A stretch of 64,000 bases of DNA from Escherichia phage vB_EcoM-PM133. Every line of letters starts with the position of its first letter. Positions within the stretch are counted from its first letter, which is position 1. The position numbers and the translations under genes were made by a program. The stretch lies in the sequence record MZ234052.1. One strand, given 5' to 3'. This document shows positions 1-63,964 of this stretch, in pieces. The notes beneath the pieces are model-generated. The model saw nothing but the letters and a program-made list of their open reading frames with translations. It was not told where the DNA came from and did not search any database.

Positions 1-1347
1 TTCATTAGCTTTCATTAAAGCATTTTTTCTTTCTTCCGGTGAAAGTTGTTTTAATTTTTCTTCTTCTGCTGCACGTTCTTCGTCAGTAGTCAATGCTTCT
101 TTATTATCTACACCACGAATCCAGTTAGATGCACGAGTTTTCCAGTTCGCAATTTTGTCTAATCCTTTTGCTATTGGGCCAAGATCATCATTCATTCGTT
201 TATCTTGATAATTTGCTACTTTTTCTTGGTCTTCTTTATTAAGAGATGCTCCAGTAGAATTTTGGAAATTTTCTAATGCTCTTCCTTCTACTTCATCAGC
301 AGTATCCTTCATGCCAGGAATGACTCGAAGAATTGCTGCAGATAATTTAGCCATACCTAATTGAATAAGCTCTCCTAAATTATAAAGAACACTTCCAAGC
401 CCTTCAACAATAGCTACTGTTAATCCGCCCCAATCTCCAGCTTCCCAGAACTTTTTAATTTCATCAATAGATTCAAAGATGCTTTGTAATAAAGGGCCCC
501 AAGTTCCTGTTTCGCTTGAGAAAGTTTTAAAATCAGTGCTAAATAAATCCCAGGCTTTTGAAAATTTATCTGACCAGTATTTAAAATGAACCATCAGCAG
601 GTCTATTCCAATAACAACAGCCATTATCAATGCAACCATTTTAGCAGCTTCAATAGCAGCACTGACGGTATACTTAAATAGCATGCTAGATATTTTATCA
701 GTAATTGAAATAGATTTCTTAAATCCGAAATCAACTGTCTTTGTTAATTTATCTAAAGCTTGAGATAATTTTAAGTTAAATGCGTCTCTTTTTTGCTTCT
801 CTTCTGGAGACTCTTGTTTTGGTTCAATTGGCTGAGGAGTAGGGAAAAAATCAGCATCAGGATCATTATTAACTGCTTCAGGAGCCGGTAATAAAGGACC
901 CACAGATTCAGCTGTATCATCCTCGACGACTTTAACAGGAATAGCATTTTCGACTACTGCTAAACTCGTTCCAGTCTGTTGAATTCCAGCTGTTTGAATT
1001 TTTTGTTCTAATAAACTCGTTAATTTATCTAATTTGCTTCCGAGTGATTCGCCTATTTCTTTATTGATATTATTGCCAATTTCAACAGTCTCGGCAATTA
1101 ACTCAGAACCGGCAGTAGTATCACTTACTGCGCTTTCAACGTTATCAATTGCTCCAACTATTTCATTTGATTTTTCTTCAACAGTCTGAGCTATTAATTC
1201 AGAGGCAGCTTGAGCATCATCTAATTTTGTAGAAATGTCATTAAGACCAGATAAAGTATTAGAAGCGGATTTAGCCGCTTCCTGTGTTGGTTTATTATCT
1301 GAAATAACTTTTCTACGCATCGTTTGCATTTCTTGTGGCTTTTTCAT
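1..1347 (-). CDS. 29: gp29 baseplate hub / tail length determinator (partial, 3' end beyond window edge)
   Basis: Minus-strand ATG at 1347 gives [22 protein letters not shown]...; frame stays open to position 1; recalled T4 gp29 N-terminus. Confidence 0.85.
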   Translation of the reverse strand, partial: MKKPQEMQTMRRKVISDNKPTQEAAKSASNTLSGLNDISTKLDDAQAASELIAQTVEEKSNEIVGAIDNVESAVSDTTAGSELIAETVEIGNNINKEIGESLGSKLDKLTSLLEQKIQTAGIQQTGTSLAVVENAIPVKVVEDDTAESVGPLLPAPEAVNNDPDADFFPTPQPIEPKQESPEEKQKRDAFNLKLSQALDKLTKTVDFGFKKSISITDKISSMLFKYTVSAAIEAAKMVALIMAVVIGIDLLMVHFKYWSDKFSKAWDLFSTDFKTFSSETGTWGPLLQSIFESIDEIKKFWEAGDWGGLTVAIVEGLGSVLYNLGELIQLGMAKLSAAILRVIPGMKDTADEVEGRALENFQNSTGASLNKEDQEKVANYQDKRMNDDLGPIAKGLDKIANWKTRASNWIRGVDNKEALTTDEERAAEEEKLKQLSPEERKNALMKANE

Positions 1348-1877
1348 TCAAATAATCCAATAATATTGCCAATTCCGGTTATTGGACCATTAGGGCCAGG
1401 AATTGCTAAAGTTGTAGAAATATCATTTGCCCATTTTAAAACAAATGCTGGCATCTCAAGAAAATTAATTTCTTTAACTTCATCATTGACCTTAAGCAAG
1501 CATTTGGATAACATATCGCTTACAGTTAAAAATTGTTCAAATTTTCCAGGAGGTCTAAAATAAAATGTATTTCCTTGGTATTGAAATTCCAATCTTTGAC
1601 ATACATAAACGTCATTAATATCATAAGTATAACCATCTATTTCTTTACGAGATTTAATCTTTCCATTAAATTCCAATAAATGAATAGAAACGAAATCAAC
1701 TTCTGCCGGTGATAAATTCGGACAAATAGAATCAATAAGAAGTTTTAAATTTTCATCAGGACCTTTAACATCTTTTAAAATGTTATAATGTTTAAGACCC
1801 ATCTTAGGAATAGAAACTTCTTTATTACTTATTGGAAGAACTACTTTCTTCAGTGGTAGTATCAGATTTAAATTCAT
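1344..1877 (-). CDS. 28: gp28 baseplate hub distal subunit
   Basis: 177-aa ORF in the 51-27-28-29 hub gene order; length matches recalled T4 gp28. Confidence 0.8.
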
Positions 1878-2997
1878 TTTTAACCTTAACTGGGTCTATT
1901 GTTTCCAGTTTCGTCGCATTAGTGAACATATATAGATGAGTTACTGAATTATTATTTGATAATTCATGGATAACTTCATCAACGTAAAATTCTGTTTTAA
2001 ATTGGTTTTTACTATCATTAAAAATAATTTTAACACCAGGAGTCAAGTTAAAATTACCGACAGTAGAACATTTAGCATAGCCATCATATTGCGCCATAGT
2101 TTGAAGACGAATAGCTTCTTCATAGCCATTTCTATAAGTCATTTCAGAATAAGCACCTGACCTTGACACTACAATAGAGTTTTCACCCTTTCCTGTAGTA
2201 ATCATTGGCAGTGAAGAATCTAAAAACGAATGAGCATAGATAGTAGCATTTTTCATTGGATCACGTTTATGCGGGTTTGATTTAGTCAACCAAACAAAAT
2301 CATATGCTAATGGATATTTCAATTCTTGGACGAATTGACCTATTAAAGTTGGCTCACCTACAATCATTGGATATGGTTCTTGATTTATCATCATATCATA
2401 GTCCATCATGTTAACTCCCATGATGTCTTGCCATACAAATACGAACTTATCGCTTCCTACCGCTAGAGCAACTTCTCTTACATAGGACAAATAATTTTCA
2501 AATGTACTAGTCCATGGAATATCAGGAACATAAGCATTTATAGCATTTATTGCTGGAGTTAATAACGTGCGATCCTGATAAATGACACCAAGCATTTCCT
2601 TTATAGATTCACCTGCATCAGAGAAAAACGGTCTGCCAAATTTAAGATTTTCTATAGAATGAATAGTTCCCAATTCAATAGCAATGATGTTATCACCCTT
2701 TGAATCTACCGATACGGAAAAGTGCTTACATCCATAAATTCGTGTTTTAACATTATTAATATCGTTTGCATTAGCTACAGAAATCTGAATTATTTCATTT
2801 CCATCCATTTTTGTATGGATATTTTTAGAATCATAAAATTGTAGCATTCCTTCATTTCGACCATAAAGAGAATCCCGCATAGTTAATGTGGTAATAGTAG
2901 CAGCTAATTCAACAAATCTATTATTACTCCAAGCGTCATAACTCTCAAATAATTTAACGCTGAGATTTGGATATCCGGGGCGTTGCAACATACTCAT
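1825..2997 (-). CDS. 27: gp27 baseplate hub subunit
   Basis: 390-aa ORF starting [17 protein letters not shown]; matches recalled T4 gp27. Confidence 0.9.
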
Positions 2998-3746
2998 TGT
3001 TGTTTATCCTTCTCAATCAGTTTTAATACGAATCCGCGCTCAGCAGGAATCATTTTCATTATTGAATTTAAGCTATAATTACTTTTTACAAGTGTGTGAT
3101 TAATTTGATAAAAAGTAAATATCTCATCTGGATTAACTAATAGCTTAAACACATCTACTATATCAGTGTATTTTTTTACATACTTATTACAACACGACAT
3201 ATGCAGTGTTAAATTAATAGGATTCATTGCATCGAGAATTTTTTCTAATGTTTCTATCTCGATGGCATCAACAAGTTCTATTTGACTCGATTCGCTAATT
3301 TCCTTCCAATCATACCACATTTCATCTACTTGAACGGAATGAATATTTTCAGTAATCATCTTTGCTTTATTTTCATAAAACTCAGAAGGAAACTTTAATT
3401 TAATTTTAACATTAGCTACATCAAAATCAGGTTCCTTTAATTCTTTTTGATATATTTCAAATGGAACTGTCTTTTCTTTTTTGCATTTTGGACATACAAA
3501 TGTAACCGGTACTTTAGTTTTACCTATTGACCCTACAAATACCTGCAAAAATATAAATGGTTGCCAAGTCTTCGGATAGTCTCCAAAATAATCGGCAATT
3601 AAATCAGCAATTATTTCTTTTTGTTCTTGTGGTGACCGATGTTCTATATCGTTTCGAACTAACAAAAAATCTCGATAATCTTCTACCGTAAATGGTTTAA
3701 AACGATGAACACCATCTGGTAATTTACAACGAATAATGTTTGCCAT
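2994..3746 (-). CDS. 51: gp51 baseplate hub assembly catalyst
   Basis: 250-aa ORF with CPKCKK zinc-ribbon-like motif; position and length as T4 gp51. Confidence 0.8.
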
Positions 3747-3763
3747 AGATGCTCCTTTTATTC

Positions 3764-3775
3764 TATTTATAAATA
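3764..3775. promoter_or_regulatory. overlapping divergent late promoters (genes 51 and 26)
   Basis: TATTTATAAATA reads TATAAATA on both strands: minus 3764-3771 for gene 51, plus 3768-3775 for gene 26. Confidence 0.6.
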
Positions 3776-3796
3776 TGATAAATAAAGGAGCTAAAT

Positions 3797-4423
3797 ATGT
3801 ATGAATACAAATTTGATGTGAGAGTTGGTTCTAAAATAATCAACTGTCGCGCATTTACTCTTAAAGAATATCTAGAACTTATTACTGCTAAAAAGAATGG
3901 TTCAGTAGAAGAGATTGTTAAAAAGCTAATCAAAGACTGTACAAATGCAAAAGATTTAAACCGCCAAGAATCAGAACTATTACTGATTCATTTATGGGCG
4001 CATTCTCTTGGAGAAGTTAATCACGAAAACTCCTGGAAGTGCACCTGTGGAACTGAAATACCAACCCATATAAATCTATTACATACACAAATAGATGCAC
4101 CAGAAGACCTCTGGTATACACTGGGTGACATTAAAATTAAATTCCATTACCCTAAAATTTTTGATGATAAAAATATAGCCCACATGATAGTATCATGTAT
4201 AGAAACGATTCATGCTAACGGTGAAAGCATTCCAGTTGAAGACTTAAATGAAAAAGAACTGGAAGATTTATATTCTATCATCACAGAGTCAGATATTGTA
4301 GCTATAAAAGATATGCTTTTAAAGCCTACTGTTTATTTGGCTGTTCCAATTAAATGTCCAGAGTGTGGAAAAACTCACGCTCATGTAATAAGAGGACTCA
4401 AAGAATTCTTTGAGCTATTGTAA
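3797..4423 (+). CDS. 26: gp26 baseplate hub subunit
   Basis: 208-aa ORF with RBS AAAGGAG upstream; stop overlaps gp25 start (TAATG). Confidence 0.8.
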
Positions 4424-5776: not shown

Positions 5777-6019
5777 TTAAAAGCTTTCTTCTACTTCATC
5801 GTCTGAATCTTCTAATTCAGCTCTTTTTCCTGCCAAAGCATCTCTGACTGAGATGTCATCAGTATCTTTTAATTCAGTTTCTTTAACTCTTTTCTTATAA
5901 TAAGCTTCAAGTTCTTCTAAACCTTCTAATGTTTGACAAGAGGCAATTTTACCCATAAATTCATCAATAGAAGCTTCATAAAGAAATTGTTTAAATTCTA
6001 GTAACATCTTTTTCTCCAA
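5777..6019 (-). CDS. UvsW.1 small acidic protein
   Basis: 80-aa acidic ORF directly downstream of uvsW on the minus strand. Confidence 0.55.
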   Translation of the reverse strand: MEKKMLLEFKQFLYEASIDEFMGKIASCQTLEGLEELEAYYKKRVKETELKDTDDISVRDALAGKRAELEDSDDEVEESF

Positions 6020-6032
6020 AGGGCCGAAGCCC

Positions 6033-7544
6033 TTATAAATTAACTGTTTTCATTACGTAATTAAATTTTTCATCTGCGTAGCGCTGAATACGATCAATGC
6101 CGTGTTTTAAAAGATAGTTCAAATGAACGTATTTCTTTTTCGTATTAGCAGATTTTGGCTTAACGCCACAATCATCTATGAGGTCCCAGACTGTTGCGAT
6201 TGTTTTAGAACCATGCTTACGTAATACACGACCGATTGTTTGTAATACAATGATTTTTGATTTAACACCGTGTGCTAAAACAACGTGATGCAGATTTTTA
6301 ACTGAAATACCAGTAGAAAATACACCATAACTAGCTACTATAATTATTCCTTTACCGTTTTCAGCTAAGGTTTTCATTATATTGCGGGTTTCGGTATCAA
6401 CTTCCCCTGATACGTAATAAACTTTATCGTATTCATTTTTAATTAAATCGAAAATAGCTTTACCATGCGATACATGTTTAAACATGACAAAAGCGTTTTC
6501 ATCTTTTTGTGCAAGCTTAATAGCCAATTTAGCGATCCATTTATTTCTTTTACTAAGCCCAGTAATAATTTTTATTTCTTCTTGGTAAGTTTTTCCCTTT
6601 AATTTAGTAGTGAACTCATCGGGATAGCGAAGAAAAATACTATTAATTTTTAACTCAGTTACTTGTCCATCTTCCATTAATTTAGAGGTCGTTACTGGCT
6701 TAAATATTTCACCAAACATTCCAACATACTGCATGATATTGGCTTTGCCATCACGTAATGAACCAGACAAACCAAATTTGAACATGCAGTTATTTAAACC
6801 TGATATGATAGATGAAATACTTTTTCCTGTAGCAAGATGACATTCATCATTCATCATCATTCCAAACTGTGAGAACCATTCTTTCGGTTGTTTTACTACA
6901 GTTTGCCATGTACCAACGACGACTGGTGCATCATTTTTATATTTATCATCTTTTGATGCTCCGCCACCAATTTTCTTTATCATTGCATGGCTGAATAAAC
7001 GATAGTCGACGAAGTCATCAGCCATCTGAGTTGTTAGAGCAGTTGTTGGAACAATGATAAGAATTTTACCTTCATAATTTTCCAAATAATATCGCGCAAG
7101 CAAAGCTTGAATTAACGATTTACCAGCGGATGTTGGAAGATTAAGAATTCTACGACGATTAACTAATCCTTCGAACACTGCATCTTTTTGATACCAGTGT
7201 GGTTCAATTCTTTTATTTCCTGAATAGATTTCTAATTTAGAAAGCCATTCATCAAAATCTTTTCTTGATAATTCTTCTTTTTCGTTAATCTGTGGGTCAA
7301 TCCAGGCTTTATAGCCAAAGTTATCACAGAACTTTTTAATTTGCCCGACTAAGCCGAATGGAAGAAGACGATTATAATCTAACAGACGGATTCGTCCATC
7401 CCAGTGGCCATATCTGTACTTCGGATTAAAACGATACCCATCAGCTTCAAAGCTAAAGAAATCACGGAGTTCATGAAATGTACTTTCTTCACAATCAATT
7501 CTCACGTGACTAAAATCATAAAAATGTACTTTAATGTCAGTCAT
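6033..7544 (-). CDS. uvsW: UvsW SF2 DNA/RNA helicase
   Basis: 503-aa ORF with Walker A (PTSAGKS) and DECH box; recalled T4 UvsW. Confidence 0.9.
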   Translation of the reverse strand: MTDIKVHFYDFSHVRIDCEESTFHELRDFFSFEADGYRFNPKYRYGHWDGRIRLLDYNRLLPFGLVGQIKKFCDNFGYKAWIDPQINEKEELSRKDFDEWLSKLEIYSGNKRIEPHWYQKDAVFEGLVNRRRILNLPTSAGKSLIQALLARYYLENYEGKILIIVPTTALTTQMADDFVDYRLFSHAMIKKIGGGASKDDKYKNDAPVVVGTWQTVVKQPKEWFSQFGMMMNDECHLATGKSISSIISGLNNCMFKFGLSGSLRDGKANIMQYVGMFGEIFKPVTTSKLMEDGQVTELKINSIFLRYPDEFTTKLKGKTYQEEIKIITGLSKRNKWIAKLAIKLAQKDENAFVMFKHVSHGKAIFDLIKNEYDKVYYVSGEVDTETRNIMKTLAENGKGIIIVASYGVFSTGISVKNLHHVVLAHGVKSKIIVLQTIGRVLRKHGSKTIATVWDLIDDCGVKPKSANTKKKYVHLNYLLKHGIDRIQRYADEKFNYVMKTVNL

Positions 7545-9792: not shown

Positions 9793-10008
9793 ATGAGATT
9801 GATTATGAGAACTGAGGTTGTGGTGTTTACTCTTCATGAGTCTGGAAAGTCATTCATTGAAATTGCTCGTGAATTAAACTTACAGGCAAAAGAAGTGGCT
9901 GTATTATGGGCTCGAGCTATGACTGCTAAAAATAAATTTGAAACTCGAGAAAAAGTCGTCTATAGAAAAAGACATATCAATAAAAAGGTGAAAAATGGAA
10001 CAGTATGA
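9793..10008 (+). CDS. hypothetical protein (24.3 position)
   Basis: 71-aa ORF between hoc and rnlB. Confidence 0.45.
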   Translation: MRLIMRTEVVVFTLHESGKSFIEIARELNLQAKEVAVLWARAMTAKNKFETREKVVYRKRHINKKVKNGTV

Positions 10009-10273
10009 TCTTTATGAAAATGAATCTTTTGCTAATCGATTACGCGAAAAAGCACTTAAAAGTAAACAGTTTAAGCTAGAGTGTTTTATTAAAGATTTTT
10101 CGGAACTTGCTAATAAAGCAGCTGAACAAGGTAAAACATATTTTAGTTATTATTGTACTGCTCGCGATAAATTGATTACTGAAGAAATTGGTGATTGGCT
10201 GAGAAAAGAAGGATTTAGCTTTAAAGTCAATAGTGATCAGCGTGATGGTGATTGGTTAGAAATTACATTTTGA
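9995..10273 (+). CDS. hypothetical protein (24.2 position)
   Basis: 92-aa ORF; start overlaps the preceding stop. Confidence 0.5.
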   Translation: MEQYDLYENESFANRLREKALKSKQFKLECFIKDFSELANKAAEQGKTYFSYYCTARDKLITEEIGDWLRKEGFSFKVNSDQRDGDWLEITF

Positions 10274-10282
10274 GGATTAATT

Positions 10283-11287
10283 ATGTTTAAAAAGTATAGC
10301 AGTCTTGAAAATCATTACAACTCTAAATTTATTGAAAAACTTTATAGCTTGGGATTGACTGGTGGGGAGTGGGTAGCTCGTGAAAAGATTCACGGCACAA
10401 ATTTCTCATTGATTATTGAGCGTGATAAAGTAACTTGCGCTAAACGCACTGGTCCTATTCTTCCTGCTGAAGATTTCTTTGGGTATGAAATTATTTTGAA
10501 GAATTACTCTGATTCCATTAAAGCAGTACAAGATATTATGGAAACTTCAGCGGTTGTATCTTATCAAGTTTTTGGCGAATTCGCTGGACCTGGCATTCAG
10601 AAGAATGTCGATTATGGCGATAAAGATTTTTATGTATTTGACATTATTGTTACTACAGAAAGTGGTGATGTGACTTATGTCGATGATTATATGATGGAAT
10701 CATTCTGCAATACATTTAAATTTAAAATGGCTCCACTTTTAGGTCGCGGTAAATTTGAAGAACTTATTAAATTGCCAAATGATTTAGATTCTGTCGTCCA
10801 GGATTATAATTTTACGGTAGACCATGCTGGATTAGTTGATGCAAATAAATGCGTTTGGAATGCTGAAGTAAAAGGCGAAGTATTTACCGCTGAAGGATAT
10901 GTATTGAAACCTTGTTATCCTTCTTGGATGCCTAATGGCAATCGCGTAGCTATCAAATGCAAGAACTCTAAATTTAGTGAAAAGAAAAAGTCTGATAAGC
11001 CTATTAAAGCTAAAGTTGAACTGTCAGAAGCTGATAACAAATTGGTTGGAATTTTAGCTTGTTACGTTACACTGAACCGAGTAAATAACGTTATTTCTAA
11101 AATTGGTGAAATTGGTCCAAAAGATTTTGGAAAGGTGATGGGGCTAACTGTTCAAGATATTTTGGAAGAAACTTCTCGTGAAGGTATTACTCTAACTCAA
11201 GCGGATAATCCTTCTTTGATTAAGAAGGAATTAGTTAAAATGGTACAAGATGTACTTCGTCCGGCTTGGATTGAATTGGTAAGTTAA
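10283..11287 (+). CDS. rnlB: RNA ligase 2 (Rnl2)
   Basis: 334-aa ORF with nucleotidyltransferase motif I KIHGTN; recalled T4 Rnl2. Confidence 0.85.
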
Positions 11288-46356: not shown

Positions 46357-46429
46357 TGGGAATTAGCCAAGTTGGTAAGGCACTGGATTTTGATTCCAGG
46401 ATGCAAAGGTTCGAGTCCTTTATTCCCAG
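46357..46429 (+). tRNA. tRNA-Gln (anticodon UUG)
   Basis: Cloverleaf: acceptor tgggaat/attccca, anticodon stem ctgga/tccag, loop ttTTGat; CCA not encoded. Confidence 0.85.
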
Positions 46430-46430
46430 C

Positions 46431-46517
46431 GCGAGAATGGCCAAATTGGTAAAGGCACAGCACTTAAAATGCTGCGGAATGATTTCCTTGTGGGTTCGAG
46501 TCCCACTTCTCGCACCA
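46431..46517 (+). tRNA. tRNA-Leu (anticodon UAA)
   Basis: Acceptor gcgagaa/ttctcgc, loop ctTAAaa, long variable arm; CCA encoded. Confidence 0.85.
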
Positions 46518-46522
46518 AATTT

Positions 46523-46596
<74 letters not shown>

Positions 46597-46606
46597 ATTT
46601 AATTTA

Positions 46607-46680
46607 CTCCGTGTAGCTCAGTTTGGTAGAGCGTCTGCTTTGGGAGCAGAATGTCGTAGGTTCAAATCCTGCCACGGAGA
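46607..46680 (+). tRNA. tRNA-Pro (anticodon UGG)
   Basis: Acceptor ctccgtg/cacggag, D-arm agctcagtttggtagagc, loop ttTGGga. Confidence 0.85.
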
Positions 46681-46682
46681 CT

Positions 46683-46772
46683 GGAGGCGTGGCAGAGTGG
46701 TTTAATGCACCGGTCTTGAAAACCGGCAGTCGCTCCGGCGACTCATAGGTTCAAATCCTATCGCCTCCGCCA
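46683..46772 (+). tRNA. tRNA-Ser (anticodon UGA)
   Basis: Acceptor ggaggcg/cgcctcc, loop ctTGAaa, long variable arm; CCA encoded. Confidence 0.85.
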
Positions 46773-46777
46773 GTTTT

Positions 46778-46853
46778 GCTGATTTAGCTCAGTAGGTAGA
46801 GCAACTCACTTGTAATGAGAAGGTCGGCGGTTCGATTCCGTCAATCAGCACCA
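46778..46853 (+). tRNA. tRNA-Thr (anticodon UGU)
   Basis: Acceptor gctgatt/aatcagc, loop ctTGTaa; CCA encoded. Confidence 0.8.
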
Positions 46854-46854
46854 A

Positions 46855-46929
46855 GGCCCTGTAGCTGGAAGGTTCAAGCAAGCGACTCATAATCGCCAGA
46901 TGGTGGTTCAATTCCACCCAGGGCCACCA
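46855..46929 (+). tRNA. tRNA-Ile (anticodon CAU, probably lysidine-modified; could score as Met)
   Basis: Acceptor ggccctg/cagggcc, loop ctCATaa; T4-like phages carry an AUA-reading tRNA-Ile at this position. Confidence 0.7.
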
Positions 46930-46938
46930 AATTAATTT

Positions 46939-47025
46939 GGGGAGTTATCCCGTAGAGGTAGCGGTGTGGACTGTAAATTCATTGTCATTGCGACTCGGGT
47001 GGTTCGACTCCACCACTCCCCACCA
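46939..47025 (+). tRNA. tRNA-Tyr (anticodon GUA)
   Basis: Acceptor ggggagt/actcccc, loop ctGTAaa, long variable arm; architecture like bacterial tRNA-Tyr. Confidence 0.7.
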
Positions 47026-47029
47026 ATTT

Positions 47030-47104
47030 GGATGTGTAGCTCAATAGCAGAGCGATCGCCTGTTAAGCGATTGGTTATAGGTTCGAATCCTATCACGTCC
47101 GCCA
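47030..47104 (+). tRNA. tRNA-Asn (anticodon GUU)
   Basis: Acceptor ggatgtg/cacgtcc, D-stem gctc/gagc, anticodon stem atcgc/gcgat, loop ctGTTaa; CCA encoded. Confidence 0.75.
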
Positions 47105-47108
47105 AATA

Positions 47109-47184
47109 CGAGGCATAGCTCAGAAGGAAGAGCAAGGACCTTCTAAGTCCTGGGTCGTAGGTTCGATCCCTACTGCCTCGACCA
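47109..47184 (+). tRNA. tRNA-Arg (anticodon UCU)
   Basis: Acceptor cgaggca/tgcctcg, anticodon stem aggac/gtcct, loop ctTCTaa; CCA encoded. Confidence 0.85.
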
Positions 47185-59834: not shown

Positions 59835-59858
59835 AGTCTCCTTCGGGAGACTTTTTTC
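59835..59858 (+). terminator. rho-independent terminator
   Basis: Hairpin agtctccttcgggagact followed by TTTTTT. Confidence 0.7.
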
Positions 59859-59867
59859 ATTTTGCCG

Positions 59868-59897
59868 GTTTACTTTCCGTTTGAGCTGTGGTACTAT
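59868..59897 (+). promoter_or_regulatory. T4-type early promoter
   Basis: -35 TTTACT (59869-59874), 17 nt spacer, -10 TGgTACTAT (59889-59897). Confidence 0.55.
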
Positions 59898-60721: not shown

Positions 60722-60868
60722 TGCCAAGGAGAAGAGAATGAAAGTTTTGTTTGTTGTGTATGTGATGATTCAATATAATTATCCAATGTTTACTTATAAT
60801 CTGGTGAACAACATTATTGATATTATTCAAAGGAGTATGTAATTGTGGGTGAGTCGAAGAGAATCAAT

Positions 60869-61402
60869 ATGAAACGATTAGTATTAGAAGTTAGTCCGCT
60901 TTTTGGTGAATTAGCTATAGAAAAAGTAAATAATATGTATCGTTTGACACAAGAAGACGATATGCTATATTTTACGCCTAGTGAAATCATTCATTTAACC
61001 CAAATTGAATATCCTTATACTGATAAAATAGTAAGCATCAATGATGAGCACAAAATTCATTTTTATTCTTCATGCCCAGGATTTAATATTAAAAGTGAGT
61101 CAATGTGTTTATCAGTTATCCATTGGGATAGTTTTATAGATAAGATTAAATATTTTTATTATTCTAATGAAAGAAAACATAGTTTAAAATGGCTCAAAAA
61201 TTGCAATGCTATTATTACTAACGCTTGCAATCAGAATGATGAAACTGTTTTAAACGTATCAAAATGCTATGAAGATGGTGATGTCTTAACTATTCGTCAA
61301 ATTGATGATTTTCGATCGTATATTGTCACATTTACCAAAGACGAAGCTATTGCGCTAAAGACTTATCTCGATTCTGTCATTCCAACTATGATTTCAAAGT
61401 GA
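60869..61402 (+). CDS. hypothetical protein, paralog A of a tandem pair
   Basis: Start chosen at MKRLVLEV; ORF track begins at an upstream GTG (60845); C-terminus KDEAIALKTYLDSVIPTM. Confidence 0.5.
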   Translation: MKRLVLEVSPLFGELAIEKVNNMYRLTQEDDMLYFTPSEIIHLTQIEYPYTDKIVSINDEHKIHFYSSCPGFNIKSESMCLSVIHWDSFIDKIKYFYYSNERKHSLKWLKNCNAIITNACNQNDETVLNVSKCYEDGDVLTIRQIDDFRSYIVTFTKDEAIALKTYLDSVIPTMISK

Positions 61403-61408
61403 GGAAAT

Positions 61409-61930
61409 ATGTTTATTTCAAGTGGAAGTGGTTTAATTCGTGTTGAATTTAAAAATGACATCTTTCTTATTCAAGGAGATGATATTATTAAAATGAGTTA
61501 TGACGAAATCAAGAAAATTTGTCATGCTCTTGAAAGTCATGGAAAAGTGAACGCTGTTATTGATATTGGCGATTTATGGGTGACACTTTATGAAGTATCC
61601 GAAGGATTTAACATTGAAGATGAAAATAACATTTTAGCTATTGATAAAAGAAGTGATTTGTTTGATGTATTAAAAGTTTATGAACAGTCAAATGGCGGAA
61701 GAAAAGCTGTATTGATTTATCAAAAACCGCATTCATGTGGAACTGCTTCAATCATTTCAGATATTGAAGATGAAACTGATACTTATATGTGTGTTTTAAA
61801 AGCTGGTGGTGACCGTCATCCGGATTTTATTTCTATTCGTCAAAACAATGAAGAAATTTCATTATCAAAATCAGAAGCTGAAGCTATGATTAAGTATTTA
61901 ACAACTGTTACACCTTCAATGAAAGGATAA
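61409..61930 (+). CDS. hypothetical protein, paralog B of a tandem pair
   Basis: 173-aa ORF; C-terminus SKSEAEAMIKYLTTVTPSM resembles the upstream gene. Confidence 0.5.
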   Translation: MFISSGSGLIRVEFKNDIFLIQGDDIIKMSYDEIKKICHALESHGKVNAVIDIGDLWVTLYEVSEGFNIEDENNILAIDKRSDLFDVLKVYEQSNGGRKAVLIYQKPHSCGTASIISDIEDETDTYMCVLKAGGDRHPDFISIRQNNEEISLSKSEAEAMIKYLTTVTPSMKG

Positions 61931-61932
61931 TT

Positions 61933-62394
61933 ATGATTATTAATGAAAACTCTTGGCACTATAAATTATTCAAATTGTTTAACGATGAATGGCAACGACC
62001 TAAGACGCTGTGCGCATACTTTTGGTCTATTGTTATCCCTACATTTTTCGTTTCTTTTTTCGGATGTACTATACTCGTAGGTCTAACTATCATCTGCGCA
62101 GAAATCATACAGAAATGGCTTATTTTTGGTAGTTTATGGACTCTTATTCCATCAGCATTTATACTTGCCATTTTGCTTGTTTTACTTATTATCGGTTCAT
62201 TTGTTATTCCTGCACAACTGCGTGAAAAATATAAAGATTATAAATGGAAAAAGGATTATGCTTTACACGTAGAAAATATTGATAGGGCGTATAAAGGTTT
62301 ACCTCCTATTCAACCCAAGAAATCGATTATCGTTGAATTTTTAAAAGCTCGTAAAGCTAAAGTATGTCCTGTTATTGAATATAAGGCTGAATGA
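61933..62394 (+). CDS. small membrane protein
   Basis: 153-aa ORF with two or three hydrophobic helices. Confidence 0.5.
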   Translation: MIINENSWHYKLFKLFNDEWQRPKTLCAYFWSIVIPTFFVSFFGCTILVGLTIICAEIIQKWLIFGSLWTLIPSAFILAILLVLLIIGSFVIPAQLREKYKDYKWKKDYALHVENIDRAYKGLPPIQPKKSIIVEFLKARKAKVCPVIEYKAE

Positions 62395-63404
62395 TGAAAA
62401 CAGTAATGAAAAGCTATTTTGGTAGTCATCTTTATGGAACTTCTACCCCAGAATCTGATGTAGATTTTAAAGAAATCTTTGTTCCTCCTGCTCGTGATAT
62501 TCTTATCGGAAATGTTAAAGAGCACATGAGTAAAAACACTAACAACACATCATCTAAAAACACTAAAGATGATATTGACCATGAACTATACAGTCTTAAA
62601 TATTTCTTTAAATTAGCAGCAGATGGTGAAACTGTAGCGTTAGATATGCTTCACACTCCACCTGAACTAGTGGTTAAATCTGATTTGCCTGATGTGTGGA
62701 AGTTTATTCAAGACAACCGTTCTCGTTTTTATACGACTAACATGAAATCCTATTTAGGATATGTCCGTAAGCAAGCTTCTAAATACGGCGTTAAGGGTTC
62801 TCGTTTGGCTGCATTACGTGATGTATTGAAAGTAGTTAATCAAATCCCTGAGCAATGGGTTGATTACCAAGAAGATGGTTCTATTAAGCAGCGTCGTACT
62901 AAAGTTGAAGATATTAAGCATCGTCTTCCAGAAAACGAATTCTGTGAATGGGTGTTCCATAATCATGAGAAAACAGGCCCACAGACGTTCTACACAGTGT
63001 TGGGTCGTAAATATCAGACAACGCTTTCTCTTATTGAGCTTAAGCAGTCACTGAACAAATTAGATGCTGAATACGGTGAACGTGCTCGTAAGGCCGAAGC
63101 CAATGAAGGTATTGACTGGAAAGCTCTGAGTCATGCTTGCCGTGGTGGACTCCAACTATTGGAAATTTACAAAACTGGTGACTTGGTTTATCCACTCCAA
63201 GATGCTCCATTTATTCTCGACGTGAAGTTGGGTAAACATCCATTTAAAACGGTTCAAGAGTTTTTGGAAGATGTGGTCGATCAAGTAGAAGCAGCATCTA
63301 CTGAAGCTTCTAAGAACGGTATGCAGCAAAAAGTAGACATGGGTTTTTGGGATGACTTCCTTGAGAGGGTTTATCTTGAAAACCACCGAAGTTATTATAA
63401 ATGA
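62391..63404 (+). CDS. Pol-beta-superfamily nucleotidyltransferase-like protein
   Basis: 337-aa ORF; N-terminal GSHLYGTSTPESDVDF fits the NTase motif hG[GS]x9-13Dh[DE]h, with downstream ALDMLH acidic residue; terminator after the stop. Confidence 0.55.
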   Translation: MMKTVMKSYFGSHLYGTSTPESDVDFKEIFVPPARDILIGNVKEHMSKNTNNTSSKNTKDDIDHELYSLKYFFKLAADGETVALDMLHTPPELVVKSDLPDVWKFIQDNRSRFYTTNMKSYLGYVRKQASKYGVKGSRLAALRDVLKVVNQIPEQWVDYQEDGSIKQRRTKVEDIKHRLPENEFCEWVFHNHEKTGPQTFYTVLGRKYQTTLSLIELKQSLNKLDAEYGERARKAEANEGIDWKALSHACRGGLQLLEIYKTGDLVYPLQDAPFILDVKLGKHPFKTVQEFLEDVVDQVEAASTEASKNGMQQKVDMGFWDDFLERVYLENHRSYYK

Positions 63405-63406
63405 TA

Positions 63407-63430
63407 GGGAGCCTTCGGGCTCCCTTTTTT
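63407..63430 (+). terminator. rho-independent terminator after the nucleotidyltransferase-like gene
   Basis: Hairpin gggagccttcgggctccc followed by TTTTTT. Confidence 0.7.
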
Positions 63431-63454
63431 ATTTCAAAAATTTTTCACAAAATT

Positions 63455-63484
63455 GTTTACAAGCATAAAGCTTTATGGTACTAT
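63455..63484 (+). promoter_or_regulatory. T4-type early promoter
   Basis: -35 TTTACA (63456-63461), 17 nt spacer, -10 TGgTACTAT (63476-63484). Confidence 0.6.
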
Positions 63485-63521: not shown

Positions 63522-63671
63522 ATGAAAATTACACCAATTGAAGTAAAAAAGTTGATTGATACAGAAGAAATTTCAGAGTGTTTTGAAAGTTTCTTAGAAG
63601 ATGCAACTGAAGATAATGCAGTTTATCTCGCTCAGAAAATTATCGAAACTTATTTGGAGAAGAATCAATGA
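63522..63671 (+). CDS. hypothetical small acidic protein
   Basis: ATG at 63522 downstream of an early promoter; ORF track starts upstream inside the promoter. Confidence 0.4.
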   Translation: MKITPIEVKKLIDTEEISECFESFLEDATEDNAVYLAQKIIETYLEKNQ

Positions 63672-63931
63672 CAGTTTACGTAGATGTTTTAATGAATCAT
63701 GGATGGAAACTTCGCGGTCATCCAACTAAAAATTGTCATATGTTCACTGATGGAGATATTGAAGAGCTTCATGAAATGGCAGAAGCAATAGGAATGAAAC
63801 GTTCTTGGTTTCAAGATAAACGCATTAAACATTATGACTTACACGCTCGCCGACGCCAAAAAGCTGTAGAACTTGGAGCTGTAGAAGTATCTCGCCGTGA
63901 AGCAGTAAAAATTTGGCGAACGTTAAAATAA
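63668..63931 (+). CDS. hypothetical protein
   Basis: 87-aa ORF with ATGA overlap to the preceding gene. Confidence 0.5.
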   Translation: MTVYVDVLMNHGWKLRGHPTKNCHMFTDGDIEELHEMAEAIGMKRSWFQDKRIKHYDLHARRRQKAVELGAVEVSRREAVKIWRTLK

Positions 63932-63934
63932 ATT

Positions 63935-63964
63935 GTTTACAGAAGGGTAGTAGTGTGATACTAT
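63935..63964 (+). promoter_or_regulatory. T4-type early promoter
   Basis: -35 TTTACA (63936-63941), 17 nt spacer, -10 TGaTACTAT (63956-63964). Confidence 0.55.

Follow-up and report, generated by a model that had tools for sequence, protein, structure and literature searches.

The gene nrdC.11 of Escherichia phage vB_EcoM-PM133 lies on the forward strand of the 64,000-nucleotide stretch of record MZ234052.1 that we analysed (hereafter the window). Judged by its sequence, it encodes a nucleotidyltransferase (NTase) of the Pol-beta superfamily that is a divergent, long-form member of the RlaP family (Pfam PF10127, 'RNA repair pathway DNA polymerase beta family'). We propose, with a probability of roughly 55%, that NrdC.11 is an early, dispensable enzyme that would restore nucleotides at RNA 3' ends, working with Pnkp and the ligases Rnl1 or Rnl2 against anticodon nucleases that excise nucleotides. 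RNA repair was discovered in T4, where Pnkp plus Rnl1 undo cleavage by PrrC. The hosts' answer was RloC, which excises the wobble nucleotide as well, and a tRNA religated after that is dead. If our proposal is correct, NrdC.11 would restore the wobble nucleotide and be the missing phage counter-move to RloC, and this would be the first in vivo role for a family that counts over 10,000 sequences.

The gene is the catalogued nrdC.11 of T4. Its NTase annotation, its family assignment and its predicted role are already in the literature and would not surprise a specialist. A match between nrdC.11 and the COG3541 nucleotidyltransferase domain was published in 2006 (PMC1524935). As later papers relay it, the name RlaP was given in 2016 by Burroughs and Aravind, whose prediction was that the family puts nucleotides back ahead of ligation (PMC7824862, PMC12776372); a role of RlaP in phages has also been predicted (PMC7824862). 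A December 2025 preprint (PMC12776372) reports that two Pseudomonas RlaPs, PfRlaP and PaRlaP, add one or two nucleoside monophosphates or deoxyadenosine monophosphate (dAMP) to RNA 3'-OH ends, prefer Mn2+ and have no activity on DNA or proteins. These canonical enzymes label many E. coli RNAs, rRNA and full-length tRNA included, with any nucleoside triphosphate (NTP). Given a cleaved-tRNA mimic, canonical RlaP favours its 5' half over the acceptor end, and it raises aminoacylation of a repaired tRNA in which one anticodon-loop nucleotide had been missing. The preprint's authors propose RlaP as an antidote to 'smart' ribotoxins such as RloC and consider its 3'-OH product better suited to 5'-phosphate ligases than to RtcB. 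In their crystal structure of PfRlaP, a cleft lies between the NTase and helical domains and the last helix packs back on the NTase. They mark T4 NrdC.11 as an RlaP of unknown function in cluster 5 of their sequence similarity network (SSN); the enzymes they assayed belong to cluster 1a. No activity or phenotype is reported for nrdC.11 in the literature that we searched. New here are a corrected third catalytic carboxylate, a beta-rich insert, the restriction of RlaP likeness to the NTase domain, and a tandem arrangement of the long form with canonical RlaP in bacterial repair operons.

Results

nrdC.11 is a real gene, conserved far beyond chance. The preliminary description, made from the letters of the window alone, had placed an open reading frame (ORF) here, and its coordinates and N-terminus (MMKTVMKSYFGSHLYGTSTPESDVDF) are as given there:

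62391..63404, forward strand: coding sequence of the nrdC.11 ortholog; 337 amino acids (aa) from 62391, 336 aa from 62394

The true start is probably the second ATG, at 62394, giving 336 aa, because this ATG fits both the spacing to a TAAGG Shine-Dalgarno sequence and most orthologs. RefSeq starts the T4 and fFiEco06 genes at the same ATG and names the product 'nucleotidyltransferase'. The DNA is 100% identical to many Tequatrovirus genomes, such as vB_EcoM-fFiEco06 (megablast). The protein shares 99% aa identity with T4 NrdC.11 (NP_049709) and matches PHROG 388, 'nucleotidyltransferase', at E=8e-137. An exhaustive protein search found 3,421 cluster representatives at E<1e-3, with 827 below 1e-30; for most, the match extends along the entire protein, at 36–58% identity. 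By tblastn, 1,517 of 50,697 phage records carry the gene, mostly T4-like phages of Escherichia, Klebsiella, Aeromonas, Acinetobacter and Vibrio. The ratio of nonsynonymous to synonymous substitution rates (dN/dS) against orthologs is 0.06–0.14, which indicates strong purifying selection.

Database labels for this gene are often wrong. Many GenBank records call nrdC.11 a 'thioredoxin', an error copied from the name of the neighbouring gene nrdC, and misannotation derived from names is widespread in GenBank and RefSeq: nrdC.4 to nrdC.11 are labelled 'thioredoxin', and MobD.1 and MobD.4 'molybdopterin-guanine dinucleotide biosynthesis protein MobD'. One record of an NrdC.11 ortholog reads 'HNH homing endonuclease'.

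The protein has the catalytic motifs and the fold of an NTase. In an alignment of 139 diverse homologs, from which all conservation figures below are taken, G11, S12, Y132, H248, R251 and P268 are invariant. Conservation reaches 90% or more at D23, D25, N57, D61, D63, D85, Y124, Q128, K131, Y228, R231, D242, W243, K244 and K279. An AlphaFold2 model (mean predicted local distance difference test 94.7, predicted template modelling score 0.84) has an N-terminal alpha/beta NTase core, recognised as such by structure comparison, with strands at residues 3–10, 24–31, 45–49 and 62–68. From there to about residue 150 the chain is helical; a beta-rich insert occupies about 154–212, and beyond it come long C-terminal helices, the last two spanning 285–308 and 317–336. 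The parts of the protein map to the window as follows:

62391..62795, forward strand: N-terminal Pol-beta nucleotidyltransferase domain, aa 1–135; the sole part matching PF10127 and the canonical RlaP profile
62421..62426, forward strand: G11-S12, the hG[GS] motif of the NTase fold; invariant
62457..62465, forward strand: D23-V-D25, metal-binding DxD pair where strand 2 begins; 99% conserved
62571..62579, forward strand: D61-H-D63; 95–97% conserved, with D63 at the start of strand 62–68
62643..62645, forward strand: D85, conserved acidic residue of ALDMLH in helix 81–87; 96% conserved
62850..63026, forward strand: variable beta-rich insert, aa 154–212; conservation is lowest and gaps are most frequent here within the family
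63027..63401, forward strand: clade-specific C-terminal helical region with conserved basic and aromatic residues

The G[GS] and DxD signature on which the preliminary description had built its case is borne out by this conservation. F10-G11-S12 sits between strand 3–10 and helix 12–15 of the model, and D23 and D25, at the start of strand 24–31, align with D39 and D41 of canonical RlaP. The acidic residue of ALDMLH, D85, had been put forward as a further element of the signature. Its conservation stands, but the third catalytic carboxylate is more likely D63, to judge from profile alignment. D63 (97% conserved) is preferred because hhalign sets it opposite the invariant D72 of canonical RlaP, whereas the helical D85 falls opposite a glutamate, the invariant E94. 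Nor does the C-terminal region of about 230 aa prove to be helical throughout, as had been supposed: the modelled insert contains strands 155–159, 165–169, 185–192, 196–203 and 206–209. Its mean top-residue frequency is 0.26 and its gap fraction 0.22, and indels occur in it even within T4-like phages. The best conserved segments are residues 1–135 and 213–262, and the conserved residues of the C-terminal region are Y228, R231, D242-W243-K244, H248, R251 and K279.

By sequence, only the NTase domain of NrdC.11 is RlaP-like. PF10127 matches at 44.3 bits against a cut-off of 23 (E=2.4e-11), limited to aa 7–135, which correspond to profile positions 23–142 of 249, and 138 of the 139 clade members match in the same manner. 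Aligned profile to profile, the clade and canonical RlaP agree over 125 N-terminal columns only (hhalign probability 94.6); for four sub-alignments of the C-terminal parts the probability never exceeded 1.3%. A K-x3-[H/Y]-A-x-R motif, by eye seemingly common to both C-terminal halves, finds no support in these figures.

Searches against solved structures return the NTase fold and little else. By sequence, the single protein has no match at E<=1 in the PDB copy searched, which lacks the PfRlaP structure, and profiles of the clade and of canonical RlaP yielded only noise. Foldseek with the predicted structure, the route that had been suggested for placing the protein within the superfamily, did find NTases in PDB, but the matches are weak (E at least 3.6e-3); against BFVD it returned only unannotated viral NTases. 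Taken together, sequence, profile, fold and context support the original call of a phage Pol-beta-type nucleotidyltransferase.

Two of the enzyme classes first suggested for it fall away. The NTase has no PADLOC match at all and no NCBIfam match above cut-off, and we therefore reject both a cGAS/DncV-like nucleotidyltransferase (CD-NTase) of CBASS signalling and an MNT or other toxin-antitoxin role. The sub-threshold NCBIfam match is to MntA (NF047752), at 13.2 bits against a cut-off of 60 and over 18 residues only, and no HEPN gene adjoins nrdC.11. PADLOC found nothing meaningful among the neighbouring genes.

The gene neighbourhoods of cellular relatives point to RNA repair. We examined 80 bacterial and archaeal loci (L numbers) whose proteins are 32–54% identical to NrdC.11, with neighbours clustered and identified by Pfam. 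An RNA-repair gene lies within 6 kb in 17 of the 80: RtcB, Pnkp ligase/Hen1, Ro60/TROVE, or T4-type PseT plus Rnl1. By our own estimate, chance would supply fewer than one such neighbour in 80 loci (12-kb windows, megabase genomes). The repair genes often stand directly upstream and in the same orientation (L037, L054, L079, L080, L006). Operons include Hen1-Pnkp-NTase (L054, L080), RtcB-NTase (L079), Ro60-RtcB-x-NTase-RlaP-Hen1 (L037) and NTase-x-PseT-x-Rnl1 (L006). The last, at positions 80–3803 of a locus from a Bathyarchaeota metagenome-assembled genome, encodes an NrdC.11-like NTase, a PseT-like kinase/phosphatase and an Rnl1-like ligase in one orientation, and it has the look of a compact set of T4-type repair genes with the NTase among them.

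A second recurrent neighbour is RlaP itself. Directly downstream of the long form in 23 of the 80 loci is a shorter paralog with a full-length PF10127 match (E ~1e-79), which is canonical RlaP; 34 loci have this paralog, a repair gene or both. In tandem loci (such as L007, L009, L020, L024, L025, L032, L037, L052, L054, L056, L061, L072, L073 and L079) the NrdC.11-like match occupies about 6001–6980 of the locus. The canonical paralog is 250–290 aa long, and stop and start of the two genes frequently overlap. The two proteins have only the NTase domain in common and both retain the catalytic motifs. This arrangement suggests a pair of non-redundant enzymes, or a heteromer, in which long and canonical forms probably divide labour.

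Viral neighbourhoods say less. Of 80 viral loci, seven, which belong to the more distant part of the set, carry a gene for Rnl1, PseT or RtcB no more than 10 kb away, which is weak evidence given the size of phage genomes. In distant T4-like phages (L122–L141, L146, L152), nrdC.11 matches at 10001–11000 of the locus and lies among NAD-salvage genes, with NAMPT, a NadR-like NMNAT-Nudix protein, a PRPP-synthetase-like protein, a C5 DNA methylase and an SPFH/Band-7 protein within about 5 kb. We judged the NAD-salvage, methylase and SPFH genes to be neighbours in a hyperplastic region and rejected them as partners.

In the window, nrdC.11 looks like the last cistron of a 3.5-kb transcription unit, because terminators flank the unit and a promoter-like element stands at its head. 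The order is mobD.5, mobD.4, mobD.3, mobD.2a, mobD.2, two MobD.1 paralogs, a membrane ORF and nrdC.11. The relevant features are:

59868..59897, forward strand: promoter-like element GTTTAC, 17–18 nucleotides (nt), TACTAT, after a terminator at 59835–59852
60845..61402 and 61409..61930: tandem paralogs of T4 MobD.1, both matching PF24449/PF24448 (T4 y05I family)
61933..62394, forward strand: upstream membrane ORF of 153 aa with 2–3 hydrophobic segments; phrog_944, 'membrane protein'
63406..63432 (hairpin 63406–63425), forward strand: intrinsic terminator, AGGGAGCC-TTCG-GGCTCCCT plus T-run, directly after the stop codon

The terminator and these upstream genes had all been noticed in the preliminary description, and each is as described there. 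The hairpin has an 8-bp stem with six GC pairs, a TTCG loop and a T-run. The element at 59868..59897 probably starts the unit from mobD.5 to nrdC.11, and near-identical copies lie at 63455–63484 and 63935–63964. All three read GTTTAC, 17–18 nt, TG-n-TACTAT, then ACAACTATC or a close variant. Each precedes a cluster of small genes, and two directly follow terminators. We take them to be T4-type early promoters from their resemblance to the T4 early consensus. Downstream of nrdC.11 are a 49-aa ORF (phrog_6888, 63522–63671) and an 87-aa DUF4031 protein (63668–63931), each with a promoter-like element nearby; in T4, nrdC.10 follows nrdC.11 directly.

The stop of the membrane ORF overlaps the NrdC.11 start (ATGA), which suggests that the two are translationally coupled. 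Pfam labels the MobD.1 paralogs T4_y05I_N/C, 'putative transcription factor'. The membrane ORF precedes nrdC.11 in 42 of the 80 viral (T4-like) loci and is absent from T4 and from beside the bacterial homologs. T4 has a single MobD.1 copy followed by the mobD homing endonuclease gene, an HNH gene that there replaces the second paralog and the membrane ORF (PMC2988022). The functional link to these upstream genes that had been raised at the outset therefore finds no support: since the synteny is confined to T4-like phages, broken by mobD in T4 and missing from distant homologs, we read it as backbone collinearity.

Discussion

The role that we favour for NrdC.11 is RNA repair as counter-defence, which falls within the anti-defence or RNA-modifying range of the preliminary description. 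NrdC.11 would be made from an early transcription unit and be dispensable in laboratory hosts. Its activity would be that of an RNA 3'-terminal nucleotidyltransferase that needs a divalent metal but no template. Once RloC or a similar host anticodon nuclease has cut a tRNA and removed a nucleotide, simple religation would be defeated. The phage Pnkp (PseT) would then heal the cut ends to a 3'-OH and a 5'-phosphate, NrdC.11 would add back one or two nucleotides at the 3'-OH, and Rnl1 or Rnl2, both 5'-phosphate ligases, would seal the break, so that a fraction of the repaired tRNAs may regain function. Our analysis demonstrates the ORF with its conservation and selection, the motifs and fold of an NTase, the partial match to RlaP and the repair genes beside bacterial clade members; the RNA substrate, the number of nucleotides added, the cooperation with Pnkp and the ligases, and the counter-defence role we infer.

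Candidate partners are present in the phage lineage. One lies in the window:

10283..11284, forward strand: rnlB, RNA ligase 2 ortholog, candidate partner; tblastn 99.7% over 334 aa

A reference phage genome that is identical to the window across nrdC.11 also carries pseT and rnlA, outside the window's extent. T4 stays viable after loss of the region spanning nrdC.11 to mobD.3 (PMC9825161), and such dispensability is expected of a conditional counter-defence gene. The window holds 10 tRNA genes at 46357–47184 (Gln, Leu, Gly, Pro, Ser, Thr, Met-CAT, Tyr, Asn and Arg), possible clients of any phage tRNA-repair activity. T4 has eight, and the Tyr and Asn genes are the extras here.

Several observations weigh against this role. 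More than half of the bacterial loci (46 of 80) have neither a repair gene nor canonical RlaP nearby. In the phage, nrdC.11 adjoins no ligase or kinase; 51 kb separate it from rnlB, with which it shares no transcript. Profile similarity to canonical RlaP is absent from the C-terminal 200 residues, the part to which the substrate cleft is assigned in the canonical enzyme (PMC12776372), so the substrate could differ. The tandem pairs suggest that the two forms are not redundant; together with the divergent C-terminal half, they leave room for another substrate or another step. The biochemically characterised RlaPs sit in a different SSN cluster (1a as against 5), and we found no published experiment on NrdC.11 or any member of its clade. 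Finally, the closest solved structure is HalB (PDB 9dbh), which makes DNA rather than RNA tails.

The same NTase and RlaP evidence would also suit an enzyme that tails RNA 3' ends outside anticodon-loop repair, for example by mending tRNA 3' CCA ends or by marking RNAs of the host or the phage for decay or stabilisation. The broad labelling of E. coli RNAs by canonical RlaPs with any NTP and the phage's own 10 tRNA genes speak for such an enzyme, and the clade-specific C-terminal domain could direct it to a different RNA end. We nevertheless consider it unlikely, given that the recurrent neighbours of the clade are ligases and end-healing enzymes rather than decay or maturation factors, and that, on a cleaved-tRNA mimic, canonical RlaP chooses the 5' half in preference to the acceptor end. 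Transfer of a nucleotide to a protein or small molecule, in the manner of MNT antitoxins, DrrA/GlnE AMPylators or aminoglycoside nucleotidyltransferases, might modify a host factor or a toxin. An enzyme of the last kind is among the top structural matches (see below); the canonical RlaPs are inactive on proteins (PMC12776372), the MNT profile match is far below cut-off, and we regard this activity as quite improbable.

The HalB structure raises the further prospect of a template-independent polymerase that produces oligodeoxynucleotides or another nucleotide signal, which the phage would use as a decoy or to interfere with host signalling. Sequence searches give no match between the two proteins, the characterised RlaPs have no activity on DNA (PMC12776372), and the idea is a long shot. 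Its most specific version, in which NrdC.11 long forms are not plain counterparts of RlaP but HalB-like synthases whose oligonucleotide or Tyr132-primed chain serves as decoy or signal against nucleotide-gated defences such as Hailong, is the most doubtful of all; here NrdC.11 might possibly have the product of the adjoining upstream membrane ORF as a partner. Restoration of RNA 3' ends in anticodon-loop repair remains our preferred role for NrdC.11.

As a counter-defence against RloC, this role is directly testable in T4, where the gene is non-essential, the enzyme is a soluble 39-kDa protein and assays are published. The T4 enzyme represents a separate long form, and results obtained with PfRlaP should not simply be transferred to it.

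Comparison with known systems

NrdC.11 most resembles canonical RlaP. The GS, DxD and third-Asp motifs correspond, in both proteins the NTase domain comes first and a helical C-terminal region after it, and the NrdC.11 clade associates with RtcB, Pnkp/Hen1 and Rnl-type ligases. NrdC.11 differs in being about 80 residues longer, with its variable beta-rich insert, and in bacteria its form often stands in tandem with, rather than instead of, the canonical form.

Other members of the superfamily are more distant. CCA-adding enzymes (class II tRNA nucleotidyltransferases) are likewise Pol-beta NTases that add untemplated nucleotides to tRNA 3' ends, but NrdC.11 has no PF01743 match, scores 13.6 bits against PF01909, below cut-off, and has a different C-terminal domain. 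The kanamycin nucleotidyltransferase ANT(4') and the uncharacterised NTase-like protein of structure 3c18, the top Foldseek matches in PDB, share with it an NTase domain plus a helical substrate-binding domain. They match at E ~4e-3, with template modelling scores of 0.25–0.30 and 7–8% identity, and act on small molecules, whereas the context of nrdC.11 holds no pointer to antibiotics. HalB, the oligodeoxyadenylate-synthesising NTase of the anti-phage system Hailong, is 16% identical to NrdC.11 with no match at the sequence level; it is a tetrameric, tyrosine-primed protein of 217 aa that synthesises DNA and has the HalA channel as its partner.

The T4 RNA-repair system (Pnkp/pseT, Rnl1/gene 63 and Rnl2/rnlB, countering PrrC) belongs to the same phage lineage. 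NrdC.11 is not a known component of it and is unlinked to pseT, rnlA and rnlB in the phage genome; in our proposal, it would be an added step in that pathway.

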